Below are positions 10,744 to 60,724 of a stretch of 64,000 bases of DNA, piece after piece; the stretch's first letter is position 1; the number at the start of each line of letters is the position of its first letter. Made by a program: the position numbers and the translations under genes. The notes below the pieces were generated by a model that saw only the letters and a list, made by a program, of their open reading frames with translations, made no database searches and had not been told where the DNA came from. The stretch comes from Candidatus Giovannonibacteria bacterium RIFOXYD1_FULL_48_21 (lineage in GTDB: Bacteria > Patescibacteriota > Minisyncoccia > JACPKW01 > UBA11713): NCBI GenBank assembly GCA_001778985.1, contig MFIU01000001.1:190934-254933 (forward strand). Reading direction: 5' to 3'.

Positions 10744-10830
10744 TGGTGCCGCGGGAGGGGGTCGAACCCTCATGAGCTTTCGCTCGCAGGATTTTGAGTC
10801 CTGTGCGTCTGCCAGTTCCGCCACCGCGGC
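10744..10830 (-). tRNA. tRNA-Leu(CAA) with a long variable arm and encoded CCA
   Basis: Hand-folded cloverleaf: acceptor GCCGCGG/CCGCGGC, anticodon loop CTCAAAA, T-loop TTCGACC. Confidence 0.85.
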
Positions 10831-10837
10831 ATATTAT

Positions 10838-11074
10838 TTATTTTAATTGATCTAGAAATTTTCTTCCTTGCCCACTTTTAAGAAATTTTTCTCTTTTGCG
10901 TGCTTCCTCGTATGAAGCACAATTTTCAACAAGTACAGTTTCAAATGTTGCGTACGGTTTCGTAGTCAAATTATATCCTTCGTTGTGCTGTTTTAATCTT
11001 CTCGCGAAATTATTGGTAATTCCTACATATCTGTAGTTGTGTTTCATACTTTTAATTACATATACATGCACCAT
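10838..11074 (-). CDS. Small GIY-YIG nuclease family protein (paralog 1)
   Basis: VYVIKS...YVGIT...RL..HN GIY-YIG signature; 78 aa; stop lies 7 nt from the tRNA-Leu 5' end. Confidence 0.8.
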   Translation of the reverse strand: MVHVYVIKSMKHNYRYVGITNNFARRLKQHNEGYNLTTKPYATFETVLVENCASYEEARKREKFLKSGQGRKFLDQLK

Positions 11075-11185
11075 AGGATTTTGAGCTTGCCCGCCTTAGG
11101 CGGGTCGTGCGCGGTCGCCAGAGGCGACTAAATCTGCCAGTTCCGCTTTACCCGCCAGAGGCGGGCACCGCGGCCCGTCTCGTCT
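11075..11185 (-). pseudogene. Degenerate duplicate of the tRNA-Leu(CAA) 5' half (GCCGCGGTG..GCGGAACTGGCAGA..CTCAAAATCCT), interrupted by three 15-nt GC hairpins; ends exactly at the GIY-YIG ATG
   Basis: About 34 nt of ordered identity to nt 1-43 of the downstream tRNA; inserted hairpins CCCGCCTCTGGCGGG, GTCGCCTCTGGCGAC and CCCGCCTAAGGCGGG. Confidence 0.7.
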
Positions 11186-17708: not shown

Positions 17709-19568
17709 ATGAAGCTTATTTCAAAGAATATCATTGTAGCTTTTCTTATTTTGATGCTCCTGGCCGGGGCGTATTCGGTTTTGCAGGAAAACCTCCGCTC
17801 CCAGGACGAATTATCCCTTTCCGAACTCGTCAAAAAGATTAACGCCGGCGAGGTTGGGAGCATTGTCGTCAGGGGAGACGAGCTTGAGGTAACCTTGAAA
17901 AACGACGCGGTTTTCCTTGCTAAAAAGGAAGCCGAGAGTTCGCTTTCTGAAACCTTGGCCAACTACAGCGTTTCCAAAGAAGCGCTGGGCCAGGTTTCAG
18001 TTGAAGTAAAAAATCCCTCGGGCTTTTTATTCTGGCTCGCGGCCCTCCTGCCGTTTCTGCTTCCGTTTCTGCTGATCGCGCTTTTTTTCTGGCTAGCGGC
18101 CCGGCAGGTACAGAGGGCGAATATTCAAGCTTTCACCTTCGGGCAATCCAGAGCCCGCGTGGTTCAGCCTGATTCCAAAAAAGAAAGGGTTACTTTTCGG
18201 GACGTGGCCGGAGTTAAAGAAGCCAAAGAAGAGCTCGTTGAGATTGTGGAATTTCTGCGCGCCCCAAAGAAATTTTTAGATATCGGCGCCAGGATTCCCA
18301 AAGGGGTTTTATTGATGGGAGCTCCGGGCACGGGAAAAACGCTTTTAGCGCGAGCGGTGGCGGGGGAGGCCAACGTTCCGTTCTTTCATATCTCGGGTTC
18401 TGAATTCGTGGAGATGTTCGTGGGAGTCGGGGCTTCGCGAGTCCGCGATTTGTTCAAAATGGCTAAGCGCTCCGCGCCGGCGATTGTATTCATCGATGAG
18501 ATTGACGCGGTCGGGCGTCATCGCGGCGCGGGACTTGGCGGCGGACATGACGAGCGGGAGCAGACCTTGAACCAAATTCTGGTTGAGATGGACGGCTTTG
18601 AGCCGCACGAGTCCGTGATTGTGATGGCTGGCACCAATCGTCCGGATGTTCTGGACCCCGCGCTTCTGCGTCCCGGAAGATTTGACCGCAGGGTGATTCT
18701 CGACCTTCCGGATATTAACGACCGCGAAGAGATTTTAAAACTTCACGCTTTGAAAAAACCTTTAGGCAAGGAAATAAGCCTTAGGCTCATTGCCGAGCGC
18801 ACCCCGGGTTTTTCCGGAGCGGATTTGGCGAACTTGATGAATGAGGCCGCGATTCTGGCGGCGAGAGAAAACCGGAAAACAGTAAGCCAGCTGGATTTAA
18901 CCCGCTCTATCGAGAAAGTCCTCCTGGGTCCTGAGCGGAAAAGCCACATCCTTTCGCAGAAAGAAAAAGAAATTTCAGCTTATCACGAGGCCGGGCACGC
19001 CCTGGTGGCCGCAGTTTTACCTAATGCTGACCCCGTCCACAAAATTACAATTGTGGCCCGCGGCCGGGCGGCCGGCTACACTCTGAAACTTCCCTCTGAA
19101 GACCGCCATCTCTACTCTCGGCCGAATTTTTTGGATGAGCTGGCCGCCGCGCTCGGCGGTTACGCTTCGGAGAAACTGGTTTTCGGAGAACTTACCACCG
19201 GCTCGGCCGATGATATTCGCAAGGCCACAATGATTGTGCGGGATTTGGTAACAAGATACGGCATGTCTGAGAAAATCGGGCCCATAACCCTCGGCGAGAG
19301 AGATGAACTTGTGTTTCTGGGTAAGGAGCTCGGAATCGAGAAAAATTATTCCGAAGAAACGGGCCGGCTGATTGATTCTGAAATGAAGCGCTTCATGAAA
19401 AACGCGTTTTCGCGCGCCCTGGGAATCTTGAGAAAATACCGAAAGGTGCTCAACGCTCTCGCCGGACGTTTGATTGAAAACGAGACCATCGAGCGCGAGG
19501 AGTTCGAAGCGATTTTGAGCTCTTTCGGTCTGAAGCAAATCCTGCTCGCGCCTGTAGCTCAACGGTAG
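17709..19568 (+). CDS. ftsH: ATP-dependent zinc metalloprotease FtsH
   Basis: N-terminal TM helices, Walker A (GPPGTGKT), SRH region and HEAGH zinc motif; the 3' end overlaps tRNA-Ile by about 20 nt. Confidence 0.95.
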
Positions 19569-19622
19569 AGCACGGAGCTTATACCTCCGCGGTTCTAGGT
19601 TCAAATCCTAGCAGGCGCACCA
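19548..19622 (+). tRNA. tRNA-Ile(UAU) (anticodon TAT) with encoded CCA
   Basis: Cloverleaf: acceptor GCGCCTG/CAGGCGC, anticodon stem CGGAG/CTCCG, loop CTTATAC, T-loop TTCAAAT. Confidence 0.8.
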
Positions 19623-20793: not shown

Positions 20794-22422
20794 TTGGTTT
20801 TAAATTTGATGGCGAAAAAATTTTGGCCTCCCGCGAGGGCGCGGTTGTATAATTACACTATGGCCTACCCCTATCTCCACTTGGCGCATGCGCCGGAATT
20901 GAAAGGAAAAGACTGGATAATTTTTAGGTTTCTAGAAATTTTTCCCGGAGGAATCGCGTGGCTGACGCTTGTGGGGATGGTTTTAGTTTCGTGGCTCGCT
21001 CCGGTCGCGGGGGCGATTTTTATAATTCTTTTTGATTTATATTGGCTTATAAAAACCATCTATCTTTCAATTCATCTTCGCGGAAATTGGAAGAGATTGC
21101 GGCATAATTTAAAGATTGATTGGAAAGAGCGCGTCCAAAAATTATGCTGGGAGCACGTCTGGCAGGTGGTCATTCTGCCCTTTTATAAAGAGTCTTATGA
21201 AGTGATAGAAAGTTCATTCCAAGCTCTCGTTAAATCAGATTGGCCCAAAGAGCGGATGATTTTAGTTCTGGCCAGGGAAGAGAAAGGAGGCGAGGGAACG
21301 CGCGAGACAATTTGGAAAATCCGCGAAAAATACAAAAATCAGTTTCCGCATTTTCTGGAAACCAAACATCCCGTAAACCTCGAAGGCGAGATTCCCGGCA
21401 AAGGCTCCAATGCCGCTTGGGCCGGACGCGAAGTAAAAAAATATATTGATAAACTCAATGTTCCTTACGGCGATATTCTTGTTTCGTCCCTGGATATCGA
21501 CACCCAGGTTCCTGAGCAATATTTTTTGGTCTTGGCCTATCATTTTCTGACGGTGGAAAATCCGCATCGGACCGCTTACCAGCCGGTTCCGGTCTACAAC
21601 AATAATATTTGGGAAGCGCCATCTTTCTCGCGCGTGGTCGCGAACTCCGGAACTTTCTGGCAAATGATGCAGCAGGAGCGTCCGGAAAGGCTGGCAACTT
21701 TCTCTTCGCACTCCATGAGTTTTAAGGCGCTCGTCGAGCTCGATTTTTGGCAGAGAAACATGGTTTCCGAAGATTCAAGAATTTTCTGGCAGGGATTTCT
21801 CTATTATAAAGGCGATTACAAATCTCAACCTATCGCTTATCCGGTCTGGATGGACGCGCCCATTGGCAGAAATCTCTGGGAAACCGCGCAAAGTGTCTAT
21901 AAACAGCAGAGGCGCTGGGCCTGGGGCGTGGAGAATTTTCCGTACACTCTTTTCGGATTTTTGAAAATTCCTGAAATTCCCTTGCGAAAAAAACTTTATT
22001 TCACCCTGATTATGTTTGAGGGGCTTTGGTCTTGGTCCACGAACGCGATTTTGATGTTTTTCTTGGGCTGGCTTCCTTTGATTCTTGGGGGCGAAGCTTT
22101 TAACTCAACTATTCTCTCCTACAATCTGCCGCGCGCGACGAGACTGATTATGACCTTAGCCATGGTCGGGATTATAACTTCCATCGTAATTTCGACTTCG
22201 CTTCTGCCGCCCCGTCCGGAGAAGACGCCTCGCCGAAAATATCTTTACATGATTTTGCAGTGGCTTTTGATGCCCGTGACTCTAATTTTCTTCGGCGCGA
22301 TTCCGGCGCTCGACGCCCAAACCCGCTTAATGCTCGGCAAGTACATGGGTTTCTGGGTGACGCCTAAATATAGAAAGACTCCGGAGTTTATTCGAAATGA
22401 AGCGATGCGGACTGCGCGCTGA
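20794..22422 (+). CDS. Membrane-embedded processive family-2 glycosyltransferase (cellulose/chitin-synthase-like)
   Basis: D..D (SLDIDTQ), ED (SEDSRIFWQ) and QQRRW motifs, flanked by multiple TM segments. Confidence 0.55.
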   Translation: MVLNLMAKKFWPPARARLYNYTMAYPYLHLAHAPELKGKDWIIFRFLEIFPGGIAWLTLVGMVLVSWLAPVAGAIFIILFDLYWLIKTIYLSIHLRGNWKRLRHNLKIDWKERVQKLCWEHVWQVVILPFYKESYEVIESSFQALVKSDWPKERMILVLAREEKGGEGTRETIWKIREKYKNQFPHFLETKHPVNLEGEIPGKGSNAAWAGREVKKYIDKLNVPYGDILVSSLDIDTQVPEQYFLVLAYHFLTVENPHRTAYQPVPVYNNNIWEAPSFSRVVANSGTFWQMMQQERPERLATFSSHSMSFKALVELDFWQRNMVSEDSRIFWQGFLYYKGDYKSQPIAYPVWMDAPIGRNLWETAQSVYKQQRRWAWGVENFPYTLFGFLKIPEIPLRKKLYFTLIMFEGLWSWSTNAILMFFLGWLPLILGGEAFNSTILSYNLPRATRLIMTLAMVGIITSIVISTSLLPPRPEKTPRRKYLYMILQWLLMPVTLIFFGAIPALDAQTRLMLGKYMGFWVTPKYRKTPEFIRNEAMRTAR

Positions 22423-24535
22423 CGCGCCGTGCCAACTCGGGATATTTTTGAATCGAATTCGCTTCAATTATTTTCCTGGCTTCTTCTCTGGCGGCTTCCA
22501 CCATTTTGATATTTTTTAAAGCTTCCATGCCGACGTCAGAGATGCCCCATTGTTTTTGGCCGGTTAGTTCGCCTGGGCCGCGAAGCTCTAGGTCATATTC
22601 CGCAAGCTCGAATCCGGACTTGGCTTCCAAAAGCGCTTGAAGCCGCGCCTTTGTTTTTTGCGAATTTGATTCCGTGAACAAGAAGCAATAGGGCTGATGT
22701 TCCGAGCGCATCACGCGTCCCCGAAGCTGGTGCAGTTGCGCGAGACCGAAGCGTTCGGCGCCTTCAATCAAAATAATTGTTGCGTTCGGGACATCCACGC
22801 CGACCTCGATGACGGAAGTCGCCACCAAAAGCTGGATTTTTCCCTCCCGAAATTCTTTCATTATTTTTTCTTTTTCTTTGGGTTTGAGCTTTCCGTGGAG
22901 CATCGCGACCTTAAACTCCGGGAAAATATTTTCCGAAAGAGTTTTATATTCTTTTTTTACGGCGCGCATCTCTGGAAGTCCGACTTCCCGGAGAAGTCGG
23001 ACTTCCTCGGATTCAATCCGCGGGCAGAGAACGTAGGCCTGGCGCCCGAATGAAATTTTTTTCCGGACGTGCTCGTAGGCATGTTTTCGTTTCTCGGGGG
23101 CGATAATCTCGGTAATTATTTTTTTTCTTCCAGCTGGCATCTCGTCCAAAAGCGTTAAATCCAAATCTCCGTAAATTGTAAGCGCCAAAGTTCGAGGGAT
23201 TGGGGTCGCAGTCATGGACAAAAGATGGGGAATCTGCCCGCCGGCAGGCAGGTTTTCTTCGTGACCTTTTTGCGTCAATTTCAAGCGCTGATTTATGCCA
23301 AAGCGATGCTGTTCGTCCACGATCACCAGCGCCAGTTTTTTGAATTTTATTTTTTCCTGAATCAAAGAATGGGTGCCGATTAAAATTTGAATCTCACCCG
23401 ATGCTAACCATTTCAAGAGGGGAGCGCGCGCAATGTGAGTCGGTTTCCCGGCGAAAGCTTTGGAGGGATATTTTAAAAATTCTGAAGAGGTAGCCAAGCC
23501 TATTTTTATATTCAACTGCTTAAAACGGCGGATGAATTCTTCAAAATGCTGGCGCGCCAAAACCTCGGTCGGCGCCATGTAGGCCACCTGAAAATTGTTC
23601 TGGACGGCGGCAAAACTCGCCACGGCCGCGACCGCGGTTTTTCCGGAACCGACATCTCCTTCCAAGAGTCTGGACATCGGCTTCGCTCGGCCCAGATCTT
23701 CGAGAATATGTTCGCTGGCTCGTTTTTGGGCGCCGGTCAGTTCGAAAGGGAAGGCTTTTACGAAATCTTTAATTTTTTCCGGCTCAATGGCTATCTGATA
23801 CGAAGGATGTTCATCGCGTTTTTTGCGCCAGGCTTGCCGGATTAGCTGGATTATGAAAATTTCTTCAAAGGCGAAGCGCTTTCTGGCGGCCTCGGCCCAT
23901 TTCAAATTCCGCGGGAAGTGAATTTCTTTTATGGCCGATTTTAAGGAGGGGAGATTGTATTTTTTTAAAATTTCTTCCGGAATGGAGTCTTTTAGGGAAG
24001 TCGGACTTCCACTTGGAAGTCCGACTTCCAAGTGGTCCAAAATTCGTTTTATTGCAAAGCGGAGCCAGCGCGAAGTGAGGCCCCGCGTCTCCGGGTAAAT
24101 TGGTACAAGTATTCCAGACTCATTCGCGGTTATCTCTCCTGCTTCAAACACGGGATTCATCATGGAAAGCCCGTTTTTATCTCGTTTTATGGTTCCAGTG
24201 AAAGTGTAGTCGGTATTGGGTTTTAAGATATTAACCATATATGGCTGGTTGAACCAGACAATTTTTAAAGAGCCGGTGCCGTCAGAAATCAAAGTCTGGG
24301 CAAGGCTGATTTTTTTGCGAAAGGTTTTTTTGGCTTCGGTTTTAATCACACGGCCGTGCACCGAGGCCCGTTCGCCCGCGACTAAATCCGCGACAGCTTT
24401 TCTGCCGGCAAACCCTTCGTATCTTACGGGAAAATGCCACAATAAATCACGGACTATTTGGAGTCCGAACTTTTTTAAAATTAGAATTTGTCTCTCGGTC
24501 AGGCGAAAATAATTCGAGAGCGGGGAGTCGAGCAT
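22388..24535 (-). CDS. recG: ATP-dependent DNA helicase RecG
   Basis: Wedge/OB N-terminus, helicase motifs I (GDVGSGKT), II (DEQH) and VI (QLRGRV); contains two in-frame REP-like doublets. Confidence 0.9.
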   Translation of the reverse strand: MLDSPLSNYFRLTERQILILKKFGLQIVRDLLWHFPVRYEGFAGRKAVADLVAGERASVHGRVIKTEAKKTFRKKISLAQTLISDGTGSLKIVWFNQPYMVNILKPNTDYTFTGTIKRDKNGLSMMNPVFEAGEITANESGILVPIYPETRGLTSRWLRFAIKRILDHLEVGLPSGSPTSLKDSIPEEILKKYNLPSLKSAIKEIHFPRNLKWAEAARKRFAFEEIFIIQLIRQAWRKKRDEHPSYQIAIEPEKIKDFVKAFPFELTGAQKRASEHILEDLGRAKPMSRLLEGDVGSGKTAVAAVASFAAVQNNFQVAYMAPTEVLARQHFEEFIRRFKQLNIKIGLATSSEFLKYPSKAFAGKPTHIARAPLLKWLASGEIQILIGTHSLIQEKIKFKKLALVIVDEQHRFGINQRLKLTQKGHEENLPAGGQIPHLLSMTATPIPRTLALTIYGDLDLTLLDEMPAGRKKIITEIIAPEKRKHAYEHVRKKISFGRQAYVLCPRIESEEVRLLREVGLPEMRAVKKEYKTLSENIFPEFKVAMLHGKLKPKEKEKIMKEFREGKIQLLVATSVIEVGVDVPNATIILIEGAERFGLAQLHQLRGRVMRSEHQPYCFLFTESNSQKTKARLQALLEAKSGFELAEYDLELRGPGELTGQKQWGISDVGMEALKNIKMVEAAREEARKIIEANSIQKYPELARRVSAQSASLHFE
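22974..23006. repeat. REP-like palindrome doublet (GGAAGTCCGACTTCC ..7nt.. GAAGTCGGACTTCC) in frame inside recG; encodes EEVRLLREVGLPE
   Basis: Read directly; the same 13-15-nt palindrome recurs at 23996, 40198, 40926 and 40988. Confidence 0.8.
23996..24035. repeat. REP-like palindrome doublet (GGAAGTCGGACTTCC + 27-nt perfect palindrome CCACTTGGAAGTCCGACTTCCAAGTGG) in frame inside recG; encodes LEVGLPSGSPTS
   Basis: Read directly. Confidence 0.8.
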
Positions 24536-26833: not shown

Positions 26834-26889
26834 AAGATTTATTATTCGATTTTAACAGTTTTCGGTCCCTCGATAAAAAATGCTGTCTG

Positions 26890-26977
26890 CGGTAGGGGTG
26901 AGATTCGAACTCACGGTGCCATTTCTGACACAGCAGTTTTCAAGACTGCCGCCTTAAACCACTCGGCCACCCTACCG
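26890..26977 (-). tRNA. tRNA-Ser(UGA) with a long variable arm, no encoded CCA
   Basis: Cloverleaf: acceptor GGTAGGG/CCCTACC, anticodon stem GCAGT/ACTGC, loop CTTGAAA, T-loop TTCGAAT. Confidence 0.85.
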
Positions 26978-27235
26978 TTACTCTTTTAACGAGTCTGTTA
27001 ATCTCGATAATAAATGTCTTTTTTCGGTATATTTTTCTTTCAATTCTTTTTCTCTTTTGAAAGCATCATATTTACTTGTAAATGCTTCGTAATATATAAG
27101 CTTCCAAGGCCTCCCCCTTTTAGTTGAACTTACGCCTCCACTGTTATGTTCTACTAATCTTTTTTTGAGATCACCGGTACAACCTATATATTTTGTACCT
27201 GTGATACTGCTTTTAAGGAGATAGACGTAATGCAT
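26978..27235 (-). CDS. Small GIY-YIG nuclease family protein (paralog 2); the ORF track extends it to a TTG at 27244
   Basis: HYVYLLKS..YIGCT.DL.KRL.EHN signature; the stop codon abuts the 5' end of tRNA-Ser(UGA). Confidence 0.8.
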   Translation of the reverse strand: MHYVYLLKSSITGTKYIGCTGDLKKRLVEHNSGGVSSTKRGRPWKLIYYEAFTSKYDAFKREKELKEKYTEKRHLLSRLTDSLKE

Positions 27236-27292
27236 TTTATTCAACCACTCCCTCGGCCGTAGCCCGGCCTACGGGCGAGGCTGCCACCCCAC
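27236..27292 (-). pseudogene. Degenerate duplicate of the 5' about 20 nt of tRNA-Ser(UGA) (GGTGGGGTGGC..CCGAGGGAGTGGTTGAAT) interrupted by a GC hairpin; ends at the GIY-YIG start
   Basis: Ordered identity to the tRNA acceptor/D-arm; inserted palindrome CCGTAGGCCGGGCTACGG. Confidence 0.55.
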
Positions 27293-27294
27293 CT

Positions 27295-27531
27295 TCATCG
27301 GCCGTATTTTTTTAGGCGGTAAGCGTCCGAGTGGTCTATCAGGTTTTCTTTATCGGCTCTGTCTATTATTTTGTTTAGCTCTTTTTTTGACAAACCAGAT
27401 GGTCGCAAAGTTTCTGGCTTGGCCATCTTAAAAAGCTCTTTCTTTTCTTTTGGGCCTAACTTCAATCCCTTGACTAAACCCTTAAGTTCTTTACTTGATT
27501 TGATATGACTTTTTTCGTCAAACAGTCCCAT
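27295..27531 (-). CDS. Hypothetical Lys-rich small protein (78 aa)
   Basis: ORF only. Confidence 0.35.
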   Translation of the reverse strand: MGLFDEKSHIKSSKELKGLVKGLKLGPKEKKELFKMAKPETLRPSGLSKKELNKIIDRADKENLIDHSDAYRLKKYGR

Positions 27532-27544
27532 GTTGTTATTTTAG

Positions 27545-27802
27545 TTATTTCTTAATAAAAGGCAATCGGATTAATTTCTTAAAGGCCTCTCCAGATTTAT
27601 AAGATTTGATCTCGATCTCTCTTTTTCTGGCAGACGTTTTGTCGGTCATGAATTCTTTATAAATTAGTTGCCACTGGCGGTAAGCTTTTGTGGAACGAAC
27701 CTTCCCAGCATTGTGAGACCTTAGTCTTTTATCCAGGTTTCCCGTGTATCCAATGTAGTGGCGCTGGAAATTTATACTTTTTAGGATATAGACCTCATAC
27801 AT
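27545..27802 (-). CDS. Small GIY-YIG nuclease family protein (paralog 3)
   Basis: YEVYILKS..YIGYT.NL.KRL.SHN signature; 85 aa. Confidence 0.8.
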   Translation of the reverse strand: MYEVYILKSINFQRHYIGYTGNLDKRLRSHNAGKVRSTKAYRQWQLIYKEFMTDKTSARKREIEIKSYKSGEAFKKLIRLPFIKK

Positions 27803-27874
27803 TTTTTAAGTATTTTCCCCGCTTGCTACTTTAAATATTTTAATCAAGGTAAGCGGGGTCACGCCTTCCGTGAA

Positions 27875-28660: not shown

Positions 28661-28749
28661 GGTGGGTTGGCCGAGCGGCTTAAGGCAACGGATTGCTAAT
28701 CCGTGGGGGCGAAAGCCCCACAGAGGTTCGAATCCTCTACCCACCGCCA
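28661..28749 (+). tRNA. tRNA-Ser(GCU) with a long variable arm and encoded CCA
   Basis: Cloverleaf: acceptor GGTGGGT/ACCCACC, anticodon stem ACGGA/TCCGT, loop TTGCTAA, T-loop TTCGAAT. Confidence 0.85.
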
Positions 28750-28769: not shown

Positions 28770-28885
28770 GCTCGCCCGCTACCTGCCCGTCCGGCAGGCG
28801 GGCGCGGGCTCGCCAGCCCTGCCTGCGGCAGGCAGGCGTTTTTCGGGGAAATTTTCCGCCATAGGCGGATCTGCCTATGGCATGA
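28770..28885 (+). terminator. Cluster of GC-rich hairpins after tRNA-Ser(GCU): CCTGCC-CGTCC-GGCAGG; CCTGCCTGC-GGCAGGCAGG followed by TTTTT (likely intrinsic terminator); GCCATAGGC-GGATCT-GCCTATGGC
   Basis: Read directly; a T-run follows the second hairpin. Confidence 0.55.
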
Positions 28886-60391: not shown

Positions 60392-60532
60392 GGCTCTGCA
60401 GGTCCAAGAAAAAAGGGAGTGGTACTTGATATCACCCCTTTTTTTATTTGACTTTTCTTTTTACTTTGCTACCCTTAATTTAAGCCCTCTGGGGCTTTTA
60501 AAAATCCCCGCCAAAGGCGGGCAAGCCCAAAA

Positions 60533-60724
60533 ATGAATCTATTTCAAAAACTTATCAATTATTTCAAGGAAACCCGGCAGGAGATGCGCCACGTCAATTG
60601 GCCCACGCGCCAAAACACGATTCGCTTCACGCTTTTGGTCGTAGGCGTTTCGGTCGCGGTGGCGGCCCTTCTGGGCCTTCTGGACATTCTTTTCCAATTT
60701 TTATTGAATAGGTTTGTTTTGTAA
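60533..60724 (+). CDS. secE: Preprotein translocase subunit SecE
   Basis: 63 aa, single C-terminal TM, position directly upstream of nusG; E..KV.WP SecE pattern (EMRHVNWPT). Confidence 0.75.
   Translation: MNLFQKLINYFKETRQEMRHVNWPTRQNTIRFTLLVVGVSVAVAALLGLLDILFQFLLNRFVL

Follow-up and report, generated by a model that had tools for sequence, protein, structure and literature searches.

The window analysed here is a stretch of 64,000 nucleotides (nt) from the genome of Candidatus Giovannonibacteria bacterium RIFOXYD1_FULL_48_21 (NCBI GenBank assembly GCA_001778985.1, contig MFIU01000001.1, positions 190,934 to 254,933 of the forward strand), and all coordinates below are those of the window unless a locus number (L013, L224 and the like) points to another genome or contig. 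Our subject is a compact arrangement in which an intact tRNA-Ser(UGA) gene is directly preceded by a small open reading frame (ORF 2) for a predicted GIY-YIG nuclease, and this ORF in turn by a partial copy of the tRNA's own 5' end that is split by a GC-rich palindrome. The features, given from the tRNA outwards, are:

26889-26976, minus strand: intact tRNA-Ser(UGA) (ARAGORN; Rfam RF00005, 61.1 bits, E=1.8e-12 over 26890-26976)
26978-27235, minus strand: GIY-YIG ORF 2, 85 amino acids (aa) (Pfam PF01541, E=1.3e-16)
27250-27240, minus strand: leader piece b, GAGTGGTTGAA, a copy of the tRNA-Ser(UGA) D-loop, 10/11 identical, with TAAA and the ATG next
27280-27251, minus strand: 30-nt GC palindrome CCTCGCCCGTAGGCCGGGCTACGGCCGAGG, which splits leader pieces a and b and whose stem has a C-C mismatch
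27293-27283, minus strand: leader piece a, GGTGGGGTGGC, a copy of tRNA-Ser(UGA) positions 1-11, 10/11 identical

The 58 nt upstream of the ATG of ORF 2 thus read, on the minus strand, GGTGGGGTGGC, AG, CCTCGCCCGTAGGCCGGGCTACGGCCGAGG, GAGTGGTTGAA, TAAA and then ATG, and the 5' sequence of the tRNA is GGTAGGGTGGCCGAGTGGTTTAAGG. A sequence-only reading of the window had proposed that a 5' tRNA fragment ends at the start of the ORF and carries a GC-palindrome insertion with its breakpoint in the D-loop, and both proposals are confirmed at this leader, where the two 11-nt pieces lie directly upstream of the ATG. The resemblance to tRNA-Ser also exceeds what chance would offer, as had been claimed. 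At one mismatch or fewer, GGTAGGGTGGC matches the window only at the tRNA and the leader (0.35 matches expected per window), and GAGTGGTTTAA only at the tRNA, the leader and one further site (0.85 expected); by our own arithmetic, the chance of encountering both 11-mers in the right order and on the right strand, within 60 nt and directly 5' of ORF 2, is approximately 1e-7. The palindrome is the sole member of its family within the window and folds as RNA at -19.2 kcal/mol, and the whole insert, from the fragment to the tRNA, amounts to some 320 nt.

Two details of the sequence-only reading require amendment. The stop codon of ORF 2 (TAA, 26980-26978) does lie beside the tRNA, but the two do not abut with zero spacing, since a single C at 26977 intervenes before tRNA position +1 and leaves a 1-nt spacer. 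Similarly, the palindrome was correctly recognized, but its parsing as a 26-nt insert plus an extra GGA is not sustained, as other loci show a discrete 30-nt palindrome flanked by G...G; the earlier parse was possible because the right arm of the palindrome, GGCCGAGG, mimics the GGCCGAG of the tRNA-Ser D-arm.

Public copies of the locus, which include GCA_003510385.1 (Rifle aquifer) and many metagenome contigs, are 100% identical, and the sole differences among them are runs of N that sit exactly in the tRNA/fragment repeats. Because identical copies differ only by such runs within the repeats, we consider the duplication to be real and to disturb assemblers. An alternative TTG start for ORF 2 lies at 27244; no contig encoding this version was found, and the ATG version returned 100% identical copies only, without polymorphism. 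A gene seemingly missing from L226 (the 95-aa neighbour) proved to be a mere difference in gene calling, the copies of this neighbour being likewise all identical, and what look like insertions in L013 and L015 are stretches of N within the repeats rather than biology. The scaffold gaps inside the tRNA/fragment repeats fall at 9905-9914 in L013 and at 10260-10391 in L015, and L093 has a run of ~45 N ending ~110 nt upstream of its ATG at 2501. It appears that such cassettes interrupt or mislead the assembly of short reads at tRNA loci.

The arrangement is far from peculiar to the window. In a scan of 80 loci from different species genomes encoding close relatives of the ORF, a same-strand tRNA gene starting between -23 and +60 nt from the ORF stop was found at 18 (0.19 expected; P=2e-30), with Ser, Leu, Gln, Pro, Glu, Asn, Lys, His and Val represented among the tRNA types. 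A hairpin-split 5' copy of the locus's own tRNA, bearing one or two GC-rich palindromes, lies within ~80 nt before the ATG at 13 of the 18, and this, together with the at least 25 metagenome loci described below, substantiates the earlier claim that the pattern recurs beyond chance. The partial copy sets in a few nt before +1, ends at a point between tRNA positions 13 and 43 and may hold one to three palindromes, the usual points of insertion being after tRNA position 11-13 or at the border of D-loop and D-stem. All 13 fragments from the genome scan (20-45 nt in length) hold a palindrome, against a window average of about one hairpin per 1.1 kb, and palindromes are never found in the intact tRNA, only in its 5' copy. 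The distance from hairpin to ATG stays at ~10-26 nt even though the tRNA coordinate of the hairpin varies, and throughout the genome scan the ORF lies on the strand of the tRNA and on its 5' side. The GIY-YIG homologues at the other 62 of the 80 loci do not adjoin a tRNA; some of them (L061, L062, L063, L071, L028) have the ORF set between two inverted palindrome arms, and in the copies linked to tRNAs only one side of the ORF bears a palindrome, accompanied by a long direct repeat of variable length. A variant layout was noted in L046, where an intact tRNA-Val (2420-2494) stands just upstream of the nuclease ORF and a tRNA-like sequence with two long palindromes just downstream (~2735-2900), with the same palindrome-bearing piece also upstream of the tRNA-Val.

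A second line of evidence comes from the palindrome itself. Metagenome contigs were scanned for the pattern CCTCGCCCGTAG-N(0-30)-CTACGGCCGAGG; at least 120 stretches matched, and 80 loci were read. The palindrome was accompanied by a GIY-YIG ORF and a tRNA (mostly Gln, also Glu and Ser) at 25 of these, by an ORF at a contig end at 3 and by a tRNA without an ORF at 6, and was solitary at the remaining 46; viral contigs gave no match to the palindrome of the window. This palindrome recurs identically in L016 and L146 and with small changes in L017 and L019, and it is also present at a tRNA-Gln in L043; the arms are invariant in L174, L017 and L019, and they are so where the adjacent ORFs are 65-70% identical in DNA. 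Far from being a local oddity, the palindrome belongs to a family of elements that is widespread. Solitary copies always have G...G on their flanks, and in long ORFs the 26-nt form of the palindrome, together with one G, constitutes an in-frame insert of 27 nt that codes for either ASPVGLRPRE or TLGRSPTGEA according to its orientation. Such 27-nt CCTCG inserts were seen in L145, L168, L142, L166, L121, L170 and others, those of L145 and L168 at the same site of a homologous protein of 600-700 aa. Tandem arrays of the 39-nt palindrome, three or four copies long and with a 40-nt period, were also encountered (L103 4245-4403; L151 1115-1233), directly 5' of a GIY-YIG ORF at tRNA-Gln.

Several other roles for the palindrome were considered and set aside. 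What might pass for the RNA tetraloops TTCG and GAAG are, as the pairing shows, the triloops C-TTC-G and C-GAA-G, and since these are mutual reverse complements there is no strand bias and no argument for a role at the RNA level. A terminator is contradicted by the want of a T-run after the palindrome, and sequestration of a Shine-Dalgarno sequence by the GAGG of the palindrome arm is not general, as Leu-type hairpins are without GAGG.

The anatomy of the cassette is clearest at Gln and Glu genes, where the order is TGCGGGATCGTC, palindrome, CTAATGGTAGGAC plus 0-8 nt, ATG and ORF. Here the ORF overlaps the intact tRNA, its last 15 nt (Gln) or 22 nt (Glu) being the tRNA's first bases and its stop codon the TAA of the tRNA D-loop, and both halves of the fragment covary with the local tRNA (TGGGGG in L106, TGGGAG in L124, ATCTGC in L164, AACAGTT in L172). 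A second type carries the palindrome reversed, after tRNA position 4-6 (L115, L158, L175, L143), and across ~20 independent Gln/Glu loci the palindrome occupies the same tRNA position. The limits of the direct repeat were taken from seed-based boundaries, a cheap-gap alignment having over-extended into the AT-rich flanks; the repeat mostly starts at about +1 and reaches 7-16 nt further upstream in L074, L064, L068 and L130. Because it extends upstream of +1, the duplication is best regarded as a DNA event that is not set by RNA processing. Derivatives of the unit are also found: L140 has fragment, palindrome and tRNA and no ORF, L102 has tandem fragment-palindrome units, and L109 has an ORF-bearing unit followed by an identical unit minus exactly the ORF.

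The protein of ORF 2 consists of the GIY-YIG catalytic domain alone (residues 4-74 of the 88-aa, TTG-start version), and no second domain or DNA-binding module was found in it by family-model searches. In an alignment of 37 sequences the catalytic Y5, Y16 and H30, as well as G18, show no variation, and the catalytic R26 and E62 reach a conservation of at least 90%. The profile of these 37 members recovers from the PDB the UPF0213 structures 1zg2 (4.4e-15) and 1ywl (1.3e-9) and SLX1 chains (8e-6 to 5e-4; 7cq2 at 8e-6) and nothing else, and the NCBIfam model for group I intron endonucleases gives 19 bits against a cut-off of 56. Judged by its sequence, the protein belongs to the GIY-YIG superfamily as a minimal, stand-alone enzyme of UPF0213/SLX1-like (URI) type, nearer to YazA/YhbQ/SLX1 than to I-TevI or UvrC, with predicted nuclease activity. 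The family is large, with 8,683 clusters at 50% identity matching at E<=1e-3, and among the 150 best-scoring of these the lengths are mostly 80-120 aa. Between ORF 2 and its Ser-clade relatives the nonsynonymous divergence (dN) is 0.21-0.29 and the synonymous divergence (dS) is saturated, a pattern that shows purifying selection on the nuclease.

In a neighbour-joining tree the tRNA-adjacent nucleases cluster by tRNA identity, with a Ser clade that spans the GCU, UGA, CGA and GGA isoacceptors and a Gln clade that holds a nested Glu pair. The ORF 2 protein is 74% identical to the nuclease at a tRNA-Ser(CGA) gene, and an identity of this order across genes for different Ser isoacceptors argues that cassettes have moved between genes sharing the D-arm. 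The CCTCG palindrome is present at all five fragment-bearing loci of the Ser/Gln clades and at none of ten others, which include other Ser and Glu loci; the hairpin family follows the nuclease clade rather than the identity of the tRNA. A site without the cassette is provided by L096/L097, where a tRNA-Ser(UGA) lies directly upstream of a His_Phos_1 gene (75% identical) with no ORF and no fragment, the preceding gene ending 19 nt before the tRNA and differing from the upstream gene of the window. Further His_Phos_1 relatives (L098 to L100) lack a tRNA there and so offer no comparison.

With regard to expression, no promoter-like site was found on the coding strand between the start of ORF 2 and the tRNA-Ser(UGA). 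A single promoter-like site stands upstream of the leader on that strand, at 27393-27365, inside a 78-aa ORF without a family match (27295-27531, minus strand) that is situated between GIY-YIG paralog 3 and ORF 2. Given the 1-nt spacing and the lack of an internal promoter-like site, ORF 2 and the tRNA are most simply one transcript, and they are probably co-transcribed. As a separate observation, the TGA stop of the 78-aa ORF falls 1 nt before leader piece a, which parallels the position of the ORF 2 stop 1 nt before the real tRNA.

The reading that we favour, with a probability of roughly 0.55, is that the locus is one copy of a widespread Patescibacteria cassette, composed of a GIY-YIG gene of SLX1/UPF0213 type, a GC palindrome and a tRNA, that is persistent, targets tRNA genes and is made by duplicative insertion. 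Under this reading, the ORF would be inserted by a duplicative DNA event into the 5' part of a tRNA gene, which would leave an intact tRNA and a displaced 5' copy; the route might be through staggered breaks that are filled in, or through repair that copies the ORF from a donor carrying part of a tRNA. Related cassettes would have moved between tRNA genes that share D-arm sequence, as among the Ser isoacceptors and between Gln and Glu. Transcription of the ORF and the tRNA would start together at the former promoter of the tRNA, 5' of the fragment, the ORF having no room for promoter-to-tRNA spacing of its own, and RNase P would then free the tRNA and set the 3' end of the mRNA, a cut that in the overlapping cases would remove the stop codon or mRNA end. 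Such co-transcription may keep the level of the nuclease low and may tie loss of the cassette to loss of expression of an essential tRNA. The palindrome would be the functional partner of the nuclease, most likely as cruciform or hairpin DNA on which a structure-specific enzyme lacking further domains could act; it may also break up a direct repeat that would otherwise delete the ORF, and gene conversion with the neighbouring tRNA may keep the fragment similar.

A number of observations weigh against this account. Five of the 18 tRNA-adjacent ORFs have no detectable fragment. The nuclease has no DNA-binding domain that would explain specificity for a type of tRNA. The palindrome is flanked by local tRNA sequence and yet is inherited with the nuclease lineage, which a simple contiguous mobile unit would not predict; gene conversion from the neighbouring tRNA, or a separate but coordinated insertion, is therefore needed. 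The nominal P of 3e-4 for the restriction of the CCTCG palindrome to the Ser/Gln clades is optimistic, given the relatedness and non-independence of the loci and a division into clades that was made post hoc. The sole clean empty site (L096/L097) shares the downstream gene only, and the other candidate, L221, ends 27 nt into the tRNA. Co-transcription, processing by RNase P and the activity of the nuclease are each deduced rather than observed. Last, the cassette at the tRNA-Leu gene described below is orthologous across species and its ORF evolves like ParB, which suits a domesticated gene better than a short-lived homing endonuclease.

A bolder extension of the cassette reading, which we put forward tentatively and with the odds leaning against it, is that the 85-aa SLX1-like nuclease and the palindrome constitute a two-part, structure-guided mobile system of a new kind. 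In such a system the palindrome, extruded as hairpin or cruciform, would serve the nuclease as its recognition element and take the place of a DNA-binding domain, the pair would spread to tRNA genes by duplicative repair, and it would seed the solitary palindromes, the in-frame 27-nt inserts among them.

The tRNA-Leu instance lies in the same window and comprises the following:

10744-10830, minus strand: intact tRNA-Leu(CAA) (ARAGORN; Rfam)
10838-11074, minus strand: GIY-YIG ORF 1, 78 aa, with its stop 7 nt before the tRNA-Leu (phmmer E=1e-11 against ORF 3; PF01541 on record)
11075-11174, minus strand: leader of ORF 1, which holds tRNA-Leu positions 1-43 as GCCGCGGTG / GCGGAACTGGCAGA / CGCGCACGA / CTCAAAATCCT

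Three 15-nt triloop hairpins (11151-11165, 11114-11128 and 11090-11104) stand between the four pieces, and one 14-mer of the leader is an exact match to the tRNA-Leu where 0.02 matches are expected, so that the sequence-only reading was right to take this locus as its first instance. The orthologous locus was located by way of ParB orthologues in L224, another Giovannonibacteria species whose ParB is 72% identical. Its leader has the same fragment, with the first two hairpins at the same sites (after positions 9 and 23) and with different loops; hairpin three and the final tRNA piece are absent from it. Both L222 and L224 preserve those two hairpin sites along with the linkers TAAA and TTTA. 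The ORF 1 ortholog of L224 is intact and 62% identical, with a dN of 0.29 as against 0.25 for ParB and a saturated dS. Since L224 keeps the fragment, the hairpin sites and the linkers, the leader is conserved rather than a decaying scar, and the description of the fragments as simply degenerate has to be given up: pieces, hairpin positions and linkers have persisted here in spite of saturation at synonymous sites. The window's tRNA-Leu and its fragment have AACTGG in common, where the tRNAs of relatives have AATTGG, and this points to gene conversion between the two. In L221, whose ParB is 98% identical, the ParB promoter region runs straight into an uninterrupted GCCGCGGTGGCGGAATTGGCAGACGCA before the contig ends 27 nt into the tRNA; this is either an empty site or an unbroken repeat, the stop of the contig being what is expected of a de Bruijn assembler at a repeat.

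This locus lends support to an alternative in which the module has been domesticated and is not currently mobile: the hairpin-bearing 5' tRNA copy would be a conserved structured leader that acts in cis, at the level of RNA or DNA, and the nuclease gene would belong to the host and be coupled to the tRNA in its expression or action. Such a module might serve in precursor processing or folding control, or in maintenance or repair of the tRNA gene. The orthology of tRNA-Leu leader, ORF and tRNA in L224, with hairpin sites and linkers kept while loops vary and synonymous sites are saturated, the similarity of the ORF's dN to that of ParB, the invariant palindrome arms across loci whose ORFs differ at ~30% of bases and the steady hairpin-to-ATG distance in the face of differing tRNA coordinates are all in keeping with this. 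However, 74%-identical nucleases at different Ser isoacceptor genes and Gln-type nucleases at Glu genes require movement, the module is absent beside the tRNA of a relative (L096/L097), units without an ORF are found as well as tandem duplicates, copies of this palindrome turn up scattered in unrelated contexts, coding regions included, and the leader has neither an Rfam family match nor an obvious shared fold. On balance we think that domestication is unlikely to be the explanation.

We regard as quite improbable a further alternative, namely that small GIY-YIG ORFs, mobile palindromes and local duplications pile up independently at tRNA borders as coincident debris of a hotspot, with no functional link among them. 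The abundance of solitary palindromes in the metagenome scan (46/80), the clustering of palindromes near other tRNAs without an ORF (at 28770-28885 of the window and in L149) and the many GIY-YIG homologues away from tRNAs (62/80) would all be natural on such a view, but independent accumulation does not readily produce a palindrome in 13 of 13 fragments when the window averages about one hairpin per 1.1 kb, nor its placement at one tRNA position in ~20 independent Gln/Glu loci, nor a hairpin family that tracks the nuclease clade, nor an ORF that is always on the same strand and 5' of the tRNA. A remnant of a tRNA intron with its homing endonuclease, or of an integrase-type island with its att-site duplicate, is a very remote prospect: tRNA genes are classic integration sites at which integration leaves partial duplicates, and tRNA genes of the Patescibacteria commonly contain group I introns (PMC13011429), but an Rfam scan at a permissive E-value (<=5) had the tRNA as its sole significant match, with the few others far below gathering scores and no match to an intron or ribozyme model, the downstream tRNA is intact from +1 onwards and so leaves nothing to be spliced, it is the 5' and not the 3' part that is duplicated, and no integrase or recombinase lies between fragment and tRNA in an insert of only ~320 nt.

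Other features of the window touch on the same elements. Those nearest to the locus belong to the third GIY-YIG paralog:

27545-27802, minus strand: GIY-YIG paralog 3, 85 aa, with no adjacent tRNA (Pfam PF01541, E=3e-14) and of a different clade from ORF 2
27817-27869, minus strand: hairpin CCCCGCTT...AAGCGGGG upstream of paralog 3 (hairpin proper 27817-27858), preceded by the 11-mer GGAAGGCGTGA

This paralog had been described as having no recognizable tRNA remnant, and we agree, as only the hairpin and a weak match of GGAAGGCGTGA are found there. The 11-mer resembles the 5' end of the tRNA-Ser(CGA) of L174, GGAAGCGTGGC, in a post hoc comparison that is weak and lacks significance, and might represent an old tRNA-Ser fragment. 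Within recG (22388-24535, minus strand) there are two long GC palindromes, at 22974-23006 and 23996-24035, in frame inside the coding sequence. They belong to another family, with GGAAGTCGGACTTCC arms and stems of 14-15 bp, and encode ...REVGLPE... and ...LEVGLPSGSPTS...; their in-frame position means that this genome, too, has palindromes inserted in its proteins. At 28770-28885, just after a tRNA-Ser(GCU) (28661-28749, plus strand), there is a cluster of four or five GC hairpins with no ORF. The related contig L149 has an intact tRNA-Ser(GCU), then a pseudo tRNA-Ser with a CCTCG palindrome in its D-loop, then a duplicated 3' tRNA piece with hairpins. At 60482-60536 an intergenic hairpin pair followed by CCCGCCAAAGGCGGGCAAGCCCAAAAATG precedes another short ORF and is closely similar to CCCGCCTAAGGCGGGCAAGCTCAAAATCCTATG, the last hairpin of the tRNA-Leu leader together with its linker. 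Finally, ARAGORN calls a tRNA-Ile with the anticodon TAT at 19548-19622, which is unusual as a gene-encoded anticodon in bacteria.

The cassette is of interest because the Patescibacteria have tiny genomes and nonetheless maintain many copies of small GIY-YIG genes. Its fixed architecture, in which the nuclease is bound up with essential tRNA genes as well as with a family of conserved palindromes, suggests a candidate substrate, a candidate target and a candidate route of expression; it would also account for assembly breaks at tRNA loci and for the nine-codon palindromic inserts inside proteins. If the structure-guided extension were true, the nuclease-palindrome pair would be among the smallest self-propagating DNA systems known.

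Our literature search found no description of the combination of a nuclease, a palindrome and a split 5' tRNA copy; several known systems share parts of it. SegB is a free-standing GIY-YIG homing endonuclease whose gene lies in the tRNA gene cluster of phage T4 (PMC2330249), and it is alike in being encoded by a non-intron GIY-YIG ORF among tRNA genes, with inheritance linked to tRNA-gene DNA. It differs in belonging to a phage and in having no duplicated 5' tRNA piece and no palindromes, whereas the ORF described here belongs to a cellular genome, encodes a catalytic domain of 85 aa and adjoins or overlaps the tRNA. SegB is also larger and has a DNA-binding part. In fungal mitochondria, mobile GIY-YIG ORFs carry or duplicate part of the host gene, as in the atp6 insertion of Allomyces, and the outcome there, one functional gene copy and one displaced partial copy beside a GIY-YIG ORF, is comparable to ours; however, it is the 3' end of a protein gene that is duplicated in Allomyces, with the ORF fused in frame, whereas here it is the 5' end of a tRNA, and the displaced copy is conserved and always split by a palindrome.

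UPF0213 proteins (YazA/YhbQ) and SLX1 share the stand-alone GIY-YIG (URI) domain and are the best structural relatives by profile; SLX1 differs in that it works with SLX4 and has a RING domain, and in our literature search we found nothing that links UPF0213 proteins to tRNA genes or palindromes. Repetitive extragenic palindromic (REP) elements with their RAYT transposases, and the Rickettsia palindromic elements, are bacterial systems of palindromic repeats, with palindromes inserted in frame in proteins. The palindromes studied here are similarly short, GC-rich and scattered, with some in frame (27 nt) and some flanking or adjoining the gene of a candidate mobilizing enzyme. Unlike in REP/RAYT systems, this enzyme is a GIY-YIG nuclease and not a Y1/HUH transposase, and the palindromes are set in tRNA-derived sequence. 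Integrase islands and prophages likewise target tRNA genes and leave an intact tRNA with a partial direct repeat, but they duplicate the 3' part by site-specific recombination and are kilobases long, in contrast to the 5' part, the ~320 nt and the absence of a recombinase here. In the same phylum, rRNA genes of the candidate phyla radiation (CPR) contain GIY-YIG ORFs in insertions other than group I or II introns, and most of the CPR rRNA insertions, of all types, are at the top or base of stem-loops (PMC11270868). The likeness lies in GIY-YIG ORFs residing in insertions of structural RNA genes; that paper differs in dealing with rRNA, with no mention of tRNA, of partial gene duplication or of palindromes (PMC11270868). 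It is a real possibility that the pair of nuclease and palindrome is more unusual than a variant of a known system.

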